Under the pieces are notes generated by a model. That model saw only the letters and a list, made by a program, of their open reading frames with translations. It did no database searches and was not told where the DNA came from. This document shows, in pieces, positions 1 to 7,430 of a stretch of 64,000 bases of DNA. How positions within the stretch are numbered: position 1 is the first letter of the stretch; every line of letters begins with the position of its first letter. The DNA comes from Eledone cirrhosa. Lineage: Eukaryota. The translations under genes and the position numbers were made by a program. Location of the stretch: assembly GCA_964016885.1 (NCBI GenBank), contig OZ024744.1:25172001-25236000 (forward strand), read 5' to 3'.

Positions 1-1540
1 GATGTCCAGAATTGGGAGTTGATCTTGGCTGTATTCCATTGTGAATTGGATGTGGTTATTGATGCCGTTTATTAAGTTTTTGAAATCCTTCAGTTGGTCG
101 AGTGTGTGGGACCAAAGAATGAGGCAATCATCCAAGTAGCGTTTCCAATTCTCTGATAAATATTTGTGGAAGTTCAATCCGTATTTTGATTTGGACTGTT
201 CATATATCTGGACTTCTAAGTATGCCATGACTAAGTTGGCATAAGTTGGAGCGGCTTTTGTGCCCATCGCAGTCCCCGATATTTGCTTGTAAGTATTGCC
301 ATCGAAATCAAAAAAGTTGTCTGTAGGATGAATTTTAATCCCTCGGTGATGAAGCTTTTTTCTATTCTGTCAGGTATCTCATTGGGATATTTCTCTAGCC
401 AGAATCCTATTGCTTCTAGTCCGTATTGGTGTGGGATCGTTGTGTAGAGATTCACTACATCGAAAGACACAATAATAGTGTCGTTGTTGACATGTTTGGG
501 GAGGTGGTTAAAGAGGTCCAGATCGTCTCTTACAAGGCTTGGTATGTGTTTTAGTATTGGTTTCAGTAGTATGTCTATAAAGTTGCTCAATCTGTGTGTT
601 TCACATTGTGGGCCCGCTACAATTGGTCTTGATTTAAGGTCTGTGGGGTATTGTGTGTTCACGCAGGCTGAGGTGGATTGTTTACAGGCATCGTTGATTA
701 TTTTACATTTGTGGATCTTCGGAAGTCCGTAAAGGTTGCTGGTTTTGTATTCAAAATTTGTTAAATAATCGCGTTCCTTTTTAGTTAGGTCTTCCTGGTA
801 TCGATAAATCAGTGTGTTTAATTTGGTCATTATTTTTTATTGCTGGTAGTTTTTTACTCTTTCATAGTAATTAGCATTTTGTAAGAGAGAGAACATAGAA
901 TTTTTATATTTTTCAGCCTCCATAATGACAACAGTACTTCCCTTGTCCGCTTCCTTAATTACAATGTCCGGATTGTTTTTTAGTTCATGGATAATCTCCC
1001 ATTCCCTTCGACTTGTGTTGGGTTTGGGTTTAGGTTGCGGTAGTTCATGGTATGGGAAGGTAGCTATGTGGTCACAAAATTTGTCCAGAACTCTGTTTCT
1101 ACCTTTTGTTGGGTTGTAGCTGCTTTTATTCCGTACAATTGATTCGTCGTTATTCTCCTTGTCAAAGAATTCCTCTGTGAGACGTAATTTTCTACAGAAG
1201 TGTGAGATATCGTCATTTATCTCGTTGGGGTTAGGATATTGTGGTGTTGGTGTGAATTTCAGACCTTTGGAGAGAATTTTTACTTGTTGGGCTGAGAGGT
1301 TTGTATTTGAAATGTTAATTATTTTCGGTTTTTCAAAATCGGTTTGTGCCACCGGGTGTCGTGAGTCCTGTAGCCTTGGTCTAAAAAATGATTTTTCTGG
1401 AATGTTTTTTCATTGGTATTATTATTATATCTAATGGTATTTCCCCTGTTGTTGTGTGGTCTTGTATAGAAGTTTCGGACGTATTGAGGTTCGGTTTGTT
1501 GATAGTCCGGGTTGTAGATTTGGTTCCTTTGTCGCAAAAA
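1..1540 (-). mobile_element. Penelope-like retroelement ORF (N-terminus + reverse transcriptase), disrupted; runs off window start
   Basis: PLE-type N-terminus KIINISNTNLS..ILSKGLKFTPTP and IVIKEADKGSTVV; then LYGLPKIHK, RPIVAG, VSFDVVNLYTTIPH. After a frameshift near 320 it reads YKQISGTAMGTKAAPTYANL...WKRYLDDCLILW (RYLDD at 127-141). An in-frame TAA at 837-839 separates the two tracked ORFs. Confidence 0.93.
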
Positions 1541-1544
1541 TGTA

Positions 1545-1971
1545 ATGAAAACTTGTTCACGTGACAGCCAAATTTCATTTATAACCAACCAAAAAAAAGC
1601 CTTCGTGAGCCTCATTTTTTCAAGTAAAAAGAAATTCAAACACTCATATATGAAAAAACAACCTGTGACAACCCCCCCCCCCCCTCTCTTATTTGAAGAA
1701 CTATTGTAACGCGAACTGGCGCGATATTTATTATAATTATTGACAAACCAATCAAATTACTTCTCGAAAAACCTGGTTTTCGAGCCACTTTTTCCATATA
1801 AAACAAGTAACATTTAGAGACCAACCAGATGTGAGAAAAACCACAGACCCTCCATCTCAACTCACCTTTTGAAAAGCAGAAGAACTGCGAAACCGGTAAA
1901 GGAACCAAATAAATATATATATTTTTTAAAAAAATAAGACTTCAGTTGCATTTTCGATTTCATCCCTTTTT

Positions 1972-1974
<3 letters not shown>
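1545..1974 (+). mobile_element. Probable inverted PLE terminal repeat (pLTR) segment ending in (TA)n
   Basis: Strand skew flips from T/G-rich to A/C-rich near 1545. The segment carries a + strand hammerhead and ends at a (TA)n tract. Inverted 5' pLTR pieces are an established PLE insertion feature. Confidence 0.55.
1865..1902 (+). ncRNA. Minimal type I hammerhead ribozyme, U3-A8 core variant
   Basis: CCTT-TTGAAAA-GCAG-aagaa-CTGC-GAAA-CCGG-TA-AAGG. Stem I CCTT/AAGG, stem II GCAG/CTGC, palindromic stem III ACCGGT, GUA cleavage triplet. Confidence 0.8.

Positions 1975-2002
<28 letters not shown>
1975..2002. repeat. (TA)n microsatellite
   Basis: Direct reading. Confidence 0.95.
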
Positions 2003-4592: not shown

Positions 4593-7430
4593 ATTTCCTA
4601 AAATGATGCCTAAAGACCGATGTAATCCTCAAAACCAACCAAAACATCTACCAGGTCGCCTGCGTTCACCAACCTTGGAAAACACCGCCAACCGCATACA
4701 TTGCACATGAATCAAGAAGATTCTGCGACACCATTGCCATCAGCTGCAACTTCACATACGGACACTCTCTGAGTGGAAACAACACTTAACACTGACACCC
4801 GATGACCTGCTCCTTAAAACTCCGAAAGTGATCGACCAGTGTTACTATTTCCGGGTACAACATGAAAAGAAACGACTCAAGCGGAAATTAGAAGAGATCC
4901 TTAAAAAACAACAACAATAAAAACACCTACGCTAACGGACAAATAGACAGGAACCACGAAATGGGCACCAACATGACAACCACCAGCACCACCCCACAGA
5001 CCAGCAACATGGCACACCTGGTCACCAACCTAAACAGTACCCTCACAAAAGACGAGCTGGAACTTCTACACCTCCGATCCAAGTTCATCGTCTCACAGAG
5101 CCGCGACGACAGACTCGACATTGAGGCCAACTTCTGTCGAGCAGCTTAACAACTCAAATGGATAACCGCCATCAACACTACCACCGAAAATGACAATACT
5201 TAGACATCCCGCCCTAAATTCCCCACCTACCACCTTCACAACCCACTCCACCACCCCCACCCACCAACCACGAACTCGACAAGAAATTCATCAGGTTGAA
5301 ACACTATCTCTGACATCCTACATAAGCACACACTCACACAACATGCAACCTCACTAAATCACAACTCACTACTCTCACAAAGCTGAAATCGAGGAACCTC
5401 GTTTACCTCCCATCCGACAAATGTCTGCGTCATCACCAACGAGGCCTACAACAACCTAACTCTCCGACACCTTCACAATGACAGCTTCTACTCCAAGGTC
5501 ACAGGGATGACCACCTCAAAGATCGAATAACATCAACGCCATTAGGACCAACATCTGCGACCGGCGGAAACTCCCGAATAGGCTAAAAAAACAACCTCTT
5601 TCCGGAGAACAGTAGTAGACCCGCCTTCCATCACTTCGCCAAAACCGACAAACAAGGAGCCGACCTAAAAATCAAGTCCATTGTATCCAGCGTGGAAGGA
5701 ACACTTAACAAAATCTCATGATTCCTGTGCAAAATCCTGAAACCTCTACTGGCCACCTTACTGGAACACATCAACAGTTTTGAAGAGGTTATAGAACGAC
5801 TGCACCAAATGAAACCTGACGCCCGAAAGGATAACAGGTATGCCTTCAGCCTTTGTATGGTCGCTTTATACACCACAGTTCCAGCACTCTCCACCGTCGA
5901 CATACTGACGGAACGAGTCCAGTCCACCAACTTACACTGCTTCGGACTCACATCCACCAGAATGCACCAGCTCCTATCCGTTGTCATTGACAACACATAC
6001 TTCGACCTTCTCGGCTACACACACCGGCAGACTTCAGGGCTACCCATGGGTTCAAGCCTGTCGGGTGTGCTAGCGATCTCGTATATGGACTGACTAGAAC
6101 TCAAGGCACTCAACACCTGCCACCCCAACGCTGCCTTTTTCTCAAGATATGTGGATGATATTCTCATCCTCACGTCTTCTCGAGAGACGACTGACGGGAT
6201 TTACGAGGCGTCCAATAACATGGACGAGAACATCGATTTCAGTATAGAGCACCCCAGCGACGACGGGTCCCTTGTCCTCCTTGATTTCCGACTAAACACC
6301 CTGGAACACGGAGGGGTCAACGCTGACTTCTACCGCAAGGCGACTTGCATGGGCCCATTCGTCCAGTTTAAGTCTGCCCTCCCTAACAATGTCAAAAGAG
6401 GATATATCCCAAACGAGGTCACGTGGATAAGAGATAGTGGCAGTGCACATGTGAGCGGAGTCACTCGTACCAAGCAGTTCCACAGGGTGTTGGAAGCTAA
6501 CGGCTATCCAACATCTTTTACTAACTTAATAAGGGACCCTAGACACAGGAGGCACAGAAGCCTGAAGGATAAGTACTTCCTCAAAATCCCGAATCTGGGC
6601 GAAAAAACCACCAGCGCTATCCTCAGAGCCATACGAAGGGAGGCTTTGGACATCCAATTGGCCCACTTGGGACCCTACCTACGGAAATGCCCCCCCCCCC
6701 CCGGAAACATTACAACGCAGACAATGCATTCTCCCTCAGCAATTGTCCGATATGACAAACAAACTATTGCATACGCATCTATGTCGTTTATAAGATCGAA
6801 CGTGACAAGTGCAAGGACTTTTACACCGGCAGCATCATCCGACCACTGCACATACGAATCAAGGACCACGATAGCACTAGAGCCTCGTCCTTTCAGAAAC
6901 ACATCACCAAATGTGGAAACAAGGAGGAAAGATACCCTGTCACAGTGCTAGCGATGGAGCGCAACATTGGAACTCTGAGGAATAAGGGAGCACTTTGGAT
7001 AAAACGACTAGGACCGCCATACAACAATAGATCCGATAGGAGTGAGACGAGATGACTGGTTTAAATCGAACGACGACACACAATAAGAGATGAGCGAATG
7101 TTACTGTACATATCGCTTGCCTACTGACATACCAACAAACAACAAACGGACAGAGCCTACTACTACATCTGTCACCAGTTTAGACCCATCCTACCACTAC
7201 CAGAAAACAAAGAGTCGGCAACATTGGTAAGCAAACCTGCCATCCCACGCCTTAGTGACGACGACTACTAATTTAACGAACTTTGAAAGATGGCACCTAT
7301 TTCGCATGTGCGCGCCCCCGATAGAGAATAGTTTCTGACACACAACAACCAGTCGGACATTGACGGCAGCTACAAACGGCCACATTGTTCCCGTCCCCGA
7401 CATATCTATTTCTTTTCGGAAACCCCCTTC
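4593..7430 (+). mobile_element. Degraded near-full-length Penelope-like element (RT + C-terminal GIY-YIG endonuclease), Naiad-like
   Basis: RT motifs LVTNLNSTLTKDELELL, FHHFAKTDK..KIKSIVS, ALYTTVP, QTSGLPMGSSLSGVLA, RYVDD (6145-6159), FYRK, ANGYP. After a frameshift: NCPI*QTNYC-VVYKIERDKCKDFYTGSIIRPLHIRIKDH...KHITKC...ALWIKRLGPPYN, stop at 7053-7055. Several stops and frameshifts. Clade assignment is by motif resemblance only. Confidence 0.9.

Follow-up and report, generated by a model that had tools for sequence, protein, structure and literature searches.

Within a 64,000-nt window of the Eledone cirrhosa genome (contig OZ024744.1, positions 25,172,001 to 25,236,000, the whole stretch analysed here), a short plus-strand motif resembling a hammerhead ribozyme lies next to reading frames of a Penelope element (PLE) that run on the minus strand; this raises the questions of what the motif belongs to, why it points the other way, and whether an RNA that carries it would cut. 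Read base by base, positions 1865–1902 were confirmed to have a minimal type I hammerhead layout with a U3-A8 core (Table 1; position names follow standard hammerhead numbering). The core has the form N3-U-G-A-N-N8-A with a Watson-Crick 3-8 pair, and GAAA at 1889–1892, the A15.1-U16.1 pair and an NUH triplet (GUA) are all present. Helix I, expected to have ~4–5 bp, and helix II, closed by G10.1-C11.1, are each 4 bp long, while helix III, expected to be palindromic or absent, is ACCGGU, which gave a 6-bp intermolecular helix in a cofold; G10.1 (1876) directly adjoins A9 (1875), the lack of an intervening base being a feature we did not treat as defining. The location in a PLE pLTR is likewise that expected of PLE minimal hammerheads, and U3-A8 is an accepted core variant (PMC4209133, PMC3088659). 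The position, strands, UUGAAAA core with U3-A8 in place of C-G, and palindromic stem III given in the preliminary description of this DNA all held; the stems it called perfect are so at this locus, but in 37 of 73 sampled arms of the family positions 1864–1865 are TA and stem I is there 3 bp.

Table 1. Features of the window around the motif, with the second hammerhead discussed in the text.
Feature	Position	Strand	Basis or remark
RT frame (DKG motif, YLDD)	1–1409	-	translations; stop near 836 plus frameshift(s)
ORF1 3' remnant, 5'-truncated	1319–1532	-	full ORF1 begins MPPK in copy L036
UUUUUUA heptamer, ORF1/RT-frame -1 overlap	1382–1388	-	6/6 spanning copies
Inverted 5'-truncated arm (pLTR part of 3' end), short 3' end	1533–1978	+	joins main arm at 1532/1533
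TATAAAA, likely pLTR TATA box	1797–1803	+	sequence; 30 nt spacing to 1827
Arm 5'-end hot spot, likely transcription start A1827	1826–1833	+	arm census
Leader hairpin, 5' foot coinciding with hot spot	1827–1858	+	fold
Minimal type I hammerhead layout	1865–1902	+	sequence, descriptor scan
Stem I CCUU/AAGG, 4 bp	1865–1868 with 1899–1902	+	read base by base
Core UUGAAAA	1869–1875	+	U3 1869, U4, G5, A6, A7, A8 1874, A9 1875
Stem II GCAG/CUGC, 4 bp	1876–1879 with 1885–1888	+	closed by G10.1-C11.1
G12 A13 A14 (GAA)	1889–1891	+	sequence
Stem III palindrome ACCGGU	1892–1897	+	A15.1 = 1892, U16.1 = 1897
Predicted cleavage after A17	1898	+	GUA site
(TA)n target microsatellite at short end	1979–2001		far, tailed end also enters (TA)n
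Second U3-A8 type I hammerhead	13338–13382	-	inside repeat about 13170–13560

A strict descriptor, which demanded a Watson-Crick 3-8 pair, stems I and II of 4 bp and a palindrome as stem III, matched once in window positions 1–20800 and not at all in 150 order-1 Markov simulations, both strands being scanned; from about 20900 a very large 23-bp satellite array fills much of the window. Rfam returned no hammerhead family at E≤10 over 1700–1960, nor at this place in a whole-window scan, and the folding energy of the motif was ordinary (z -0.94), so the case for a hammerhead depends on motif layout and context. The blank Rfam result and unremarkable fold are what a chance look-alike in A/U-rich pLTR sequence would give, but that explanation is largely refuted and scarcely credible given the empty simulations, the presence of every core position and the location in a pLTR, where PLE hammerheads are expected (PMC4209133).

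The motif sits in the inverted end-arm of a PLE that is broken and present at high copy number. Translations showed that the RT frame extends past the window into a CxxxxCxxC linker (CGRSNCGTC) and then a GIY-YIG endonuclease (Pfam PF01541, 31.6 bits against a cutoff of 22.6), and in the flank outside the window these are followed by a microsatellite-rich 3' UTR and a sense pLTR. Pfam left the RT fragments of the window unscored, and full-length homologues carry both PF00078 and PF01541. The element thus has the marks of an EN+ PLE: an RT with a DKG motif plus a GIY-YIG at the C terminus, together with pLTRs, an inverted 5'-truncated copy and, at one of the two ends, a tail (25 of 27 loci, L031–L057, selected for holding two matches), inverted copies and a one-end tail being known PLE features (PMC8557442, PMC3846280). 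A CX2-5CxxC linker between RT and EN and (TA)n targets are described for Neptune and Nematis (PMC8557442). The CGRSNCGTC linker, a motif carried by 113 of 120 homologues, and the (TA)n targets therefore point to a Neptune/Nematis-like element, an assignment by linker and targets that covers both clades. A full unit measures 4,693 bp, taken between the tandem hammerheads of a partial tandem (L036). The UUUUUUA heptamer in the overlap of ORF1 and the RT frame, seen in the copies that span it (L031, L034–L036, L057 and L058), is possibly a candidate for programmed frameshifting, or the RT frame may instead start at a GUG just downstream; the legend to Fig. 1 of PMC8557442 refers to a frameshifted ORF1 in PLEs. 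In L035 the heptamer is followed by 768 open codons, and the 120 homologues are at most 799 aa long. Elsewhere in the window, at about 4600–6950 (+), there is a second, decayed PLE-like RT region, which had no tblastn match to the proteins of the main element.

The orientation of the motif follows from the form of the insertions, which consist of two arms joined head-to-head, each 5'-truncated separately. In 25 of the 27 two-arm loci one arm ends at the equivalent of 1978 and the other is 73 nt longer, and nearly all arm ends enter (TA)n. The hammerhead belongs to the short-ended arm, and its plus orientation is just that of the sense strand of an inverted arm. The stretch 1533–1978 is repeated in sense at the 3' end of the element outside the window (98.4% over 450 nt; L031 5872–5423, i.e., G000:C28:25170372–25169923), a recurrence that the preliminary description had suggested checking for. 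Its proposal of an inverted 5' pLTR was right as to an inverted pLTR-type arm, but this is the 5'-truncated second arm of a head-to-head insertion and not this copy's functional upstream pLTR. As the two hammerheads of the locus are on opposite strands, a tandem cis dimer is impossible here and needs a partial tandem such as L036. Many whole insertions among L039–L055 (G000:C1) are MITE-like palindromes of ~350–450 bp, in which two leader arms are joined near 1826–1833. A 13-nt likeness between the 1533 truncation point and the post-cut sequence was also considered and dropped, since the stretch belongs to ORF1 and the truncation points of other copies lie elsewhere.

In three loci (L033, L035 and L056) the short-ended arm is longer than the tailed arm, so neither arm can represent a complete copy of its partner, and fold-back copying as the sole origin of the second arm is ruled out for these loci. 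Across 43 scorable loci the arms agree at a subfamily site in 40 (three further loci were unscorable); the discordant loci comprise an alignment-edge case (L099), a single change (L130) and the sole clean subfamily switch (L138). These arms bear on a purely structural role for the motif, by which ACCGGU would pair two element RNAs in the manner of a retroviral dimerisation signal, a protein dimer would prime synthesis on the two DNA strands and so produce both arms, and U3-A17 pairing would delay cutting. The regular coupling of one short and one tailed arm, the three loci whose arms are not complete copies of one another, the subfamily switch in L138, and the Poseidon element of Anolis carolinensis (PAc), a predicted dimer that extends both strands (PMC11167929), are all consistent with such a role. 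The general concordance of the arms, with L138 the only clean exception, argues the other way and would also suit either conversion between arms or a single RNA serving twice, and Naiads form the same inverted structures without canonical hammerheads (PMC8557442); we consider a structural role of this kind distinctly improbable.

The 5' ends of these arms bear on which RNA was copied into them. Among the first 85 of 9,687 exact matches of a probe at 1833–1856, 49 arms start at 1826–1833: in a group of 73 there are 39 such arms, with one beginning at 1818 and 33 running further upstream, and the remaining 12 include another 10. Where solo arms meet (TA)n, the join falls directly at about A1827-G1828, and loose ends at 1826–1829 occur in contigs of run X1 (a run of unrecorded kind). 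By the rule for the spacing between a TATA box and a transcription start, TATAAAA would place the start at A1827, and we infer that the pLTR promoter starts RNA near this base and that the short arms are probably run-off copies of the 5' leader of the RNA. The hot spot need not be a start site, however, as copying might instead be released at the foot of the leader hairpin. The Penelope promoter of D. virilis is internal and TATA-less (PMC2377424), so that element is not simply the source of the TATA reading. A 3' splice site at the CAG at 1826–1828 is an unlikely cause of the hot spot, since there is no pyrimidine tract and the arms include A1827/G1828. Genome counts upstream and downstream of the hot spot (765 vs 9,687) were rejected as a measure of truncation because the upstream probe holds a subfamily SNP, and truncation was judged from the sampled loci instead. 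Our literature search found no paper on start-site run-off copies of PLE leaders, a subject that Lunse 2017, Przybilski 2007, the Terminon paper and supplement file 1 of Cervera might cover. The inverted arm aims its likely promoter (1827 onward, +) outward into host DNA, and this could drive a readout transcript with one hammerhead.

If the RNA were cut before being copied, 5' ends should lie at the cleavage site. A double-mismatch probe for such ends gave 119 matches, of which 21 of the 30 inspected were true 5' ends, and a control 9 nt upstream gave 93 matches, with 13 true ends in 30. Extrapolation gives ~83 ends at the cut site against ~40 at the control, an excess of ~2-fold that is weak, as some matches are two arms of the same insertion and the control holds a CpG. 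Both classes are few compared with the hot spot, for which extrapolation gives several thousand ends, and this abundance of ends at the hot spot and scarcity at the cut site suggest that genomic copies are likely templated mostly by uncut RNA. The ~2-fold excess leaves room for some cutting, and uncut templates are compatible with it, since cut RNA may be lost or may yield cDNA too short to integrate.

A 34-mer probe with positions 3 and 8 left free had 6,254 exact matches in the genome (reversed control, 0), of which 6,229 were U3-A8 and none C3-G8; position 3 was changed in 17 matches, all of which kept A8, and position 8 in eight. That family copies keep U3/A8, as the preliminary description required, was thus borne out, but in a young family (~95–99% identity) this is largely identity by descent and not proof of selection. 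The same description took U3-A8 for a known, rare functional variant; known it is (PMC4209133), but within this genome it is not rare. No C3-G8 core joined to an ACCGGU stem III was found under the pattern used. Other families do have C3-G8 cores (60 matches against two in the control, under one narrow pattern); for instance, L205–L218 have canonical C3-G8 cores, e.g., with stem II GCCC/GGGC, and one of these loci is near a weak PLE endonuclease match. Among the sampled arms, several shared subfamily variants lie in the flanks, but none was seen in the core, stem II or stem III. The TA version with its 3-bp stem I has a monomer MFE structure without stems I and II, and occurs at a similar share in the X1 contigs. 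In L140 both arms carry G5A, expected to kill catalysis, which may reflect either a dead-ribozyme source or conversion between arms.

The second hammerhead of the window has a UUGAUAA core, a 12-nt palindromic stem III and a GUC site, and because of the GUC there is no conflict between U3 and A17. It belongs to an unrelated 320-nt repeat that is (TA)n-inserted, sometimes tandem, and has PLE-like short and tailed ends, with 1,736 first-look candidates in the genome; the repeat would be either retrozyme-like or a non-autonomous PLE. U3-A8 is present in 27 of 28 anchors (the loci may overlap) with wholly different stems, and L191 has a compensatory change in stem II (GCAC/GUGC to GUAC/GUAC). This family offers better conservation support for U3-A8 than the copies of the main family do.

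Folding of the main motif suggests why cutting might be weak. In the monomer, stems I and II pair at p 0.70–0.83, stem III is not formed (A15.1-U16.1 p 0.0), and a U3-A17 pair (p 0.56) lengthens stem I. The active double hammerhead has -18.9 kcal/mol as a dimer, compared with 2 x -6.4 for the monomers, and is beaten by 1.4 kcal/mol by a dimer with U3-A17 pairs (-20.3 kcal/mol). By analogy, the U3-A17 mispair would resemble the inhibitory C3-G17 trap that is accepted as the reason why G17 minimal hammerheads are weak, and in which the 3-17 Watson-Crick pair can mask the site by stacking on helix I (Kalweit and Hammann 2013, PMC3884650); here the pair is U3-A17 and the motif natural, and the analogy comes from folding. 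A literature search returned no paper on a U3-A17 trap, although Lunse 2017, Przybilski 2007, the Terminon paper and supplement file 1 of Cervera could cover it. On these models the motif is likely a weak ribozyme, predicted to need the pairing of two RNAs through ACCGGU before it can cut after A1898.

The folds are also relevant to the possibility that the motif is a dead relic, the fold of a hammerhead ancestor that no longer cuts, owing to the U3-A17 trap and a stem I of 3–4 bp, and that owes its survival only to its place in the 3' end that a recently amplified family copies. Such a relic would explain why copies pass through the uncut site with few 5' ends at 1899, why the U3-A17 register leads in the dimer and is so prominent in the monomer, why the TA subfamily is so widely spread, and why both L140 arms have G5A, and it is also in keeping with the lack of effect of hammerhead mutants on insertion in vitro (PMC11167929). 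It is harder to reconcile with a core, stem II and stem III that lack common subfamily variants amid flanks that have several, and with a second family in which U3-A8 persists on different stems alongside a compensatory change. On balance we think it unlikely that the motif is dead.

We instead favour, at a probability of roughly three in four, the view that the motif lies in the 5' leader of a Neptune/Nematis-like PLE, is copied through uncut, and is a weak ribozyme that depends on dimer formation and on protein. In RNA starting near A1827 the hammerhead would be part of the 5' leader, at a distance of 72 nt from the cap; RT of the element would start downstream of the hammerhead at two fixed sites and copy through the uncut motif; and RT working on the leader copy would reach the 5' end of the RNA and run off, which would produce short arms with their start at 1826–1833. 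As the monomer would lack stem III, with U3 tending to pair with A17, a dimer formed in trans, and probably a PLE protein, would be needed for cutting. Schistosome minimal hammerheads have no activity as monomers and are weak as dimers (PMC4209133), while in the anole element hammerhead cleavage needs protein and uncut RNA is the main inserted template (PMC11167929); together with the U3-A17 tendency, these results make a weak leader ribozyme dependent on dimer and protein the best reading.

The motif is a new example of a published kind, the U3-A8 minimal hammerhead of a PLE pLTR, for which ~1,300 matches were reported in S. mansoni (Cervera 2014, PMC4209133), UUGAAAAA and UUGAUAAA cores being given in supplement file 2 of that paper. 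The Cercyon pLTR hammerheads of Schistosoma mansoni described there are likewise type I and minimal with a short helix I and a predicted dimer; their family 4 shares the U3-A8 core UUGAAAA(A), and they too are mostly solo copies or close opposite-strand pairs. Helix II is 4 bp here and usually 7–8 in Cercyon, and unlike Cercyon our motif lacks an additional base between 9 and 10.1 and has a 6-nt palindrome as helix III and a host element with a Neptune/Nematis-type Cys linker (PMC4209133). PAc (Frangieh 2024, PMC11167929) is similar in that its RT begins in vitro at two internal, tail-defining sites, both strands are extended, the target is AT-rich and the template is uncut RNA. It differs in having C3-G8 and an ORF that starts inside the hammerhead, which here lies entirely in the leader, and in that ORF1 and the RT frame are split here; the two ends, 73 nt apart here, are typically 30–40 nt apart (PMC8557442). 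The same core covariation is known from natural U3-A8 hammerheads (Perreault 2011, PMC3088659), a paper that cites earlier in vitro activity for pairs covarying at 3 and 8; its passages on these motifs do not describe them as PLE minimal hammerheads or discuss U3 combined with A17.

We also speculate, while holding this to be improbable, that U3-A8 with A17 acts as a safety catch: ACCGGU would dimerise two RNAs in one integration complex that writes both arms from two RT sites, cutting would come later and only with protein, and the short arms would be run-offs of uncut leaders. If this were true, cutting may turn a capped leader into a translated or discarded form, and the thousands of short arms would document, in vivo, both internal initiation and the start site. 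Viral hammerheads have been reported to drive translation by cleavage (PMC13725137), which by analogy is only a lead for the PLE hammerhead here.

This is one more large U3-A8 family, and searches for CUGANGA only miss much of the hammerhead content of this genome: one subfamily has 6,229 or more exact copies, compared with 60 C3-G8 matches under one narrow pattern. With its thousands of copies, this young family also records the transposition cycle, in two fixed 3' ends, one per arm, in a 5' pile-up 30 nt past a TATA box, and in few cut-site ends, an in vivo record that agrees with the in vitro finding in the anole that uncut RNA is the template. The family is a clean system in which to ask what a PLE hammerhead is for.
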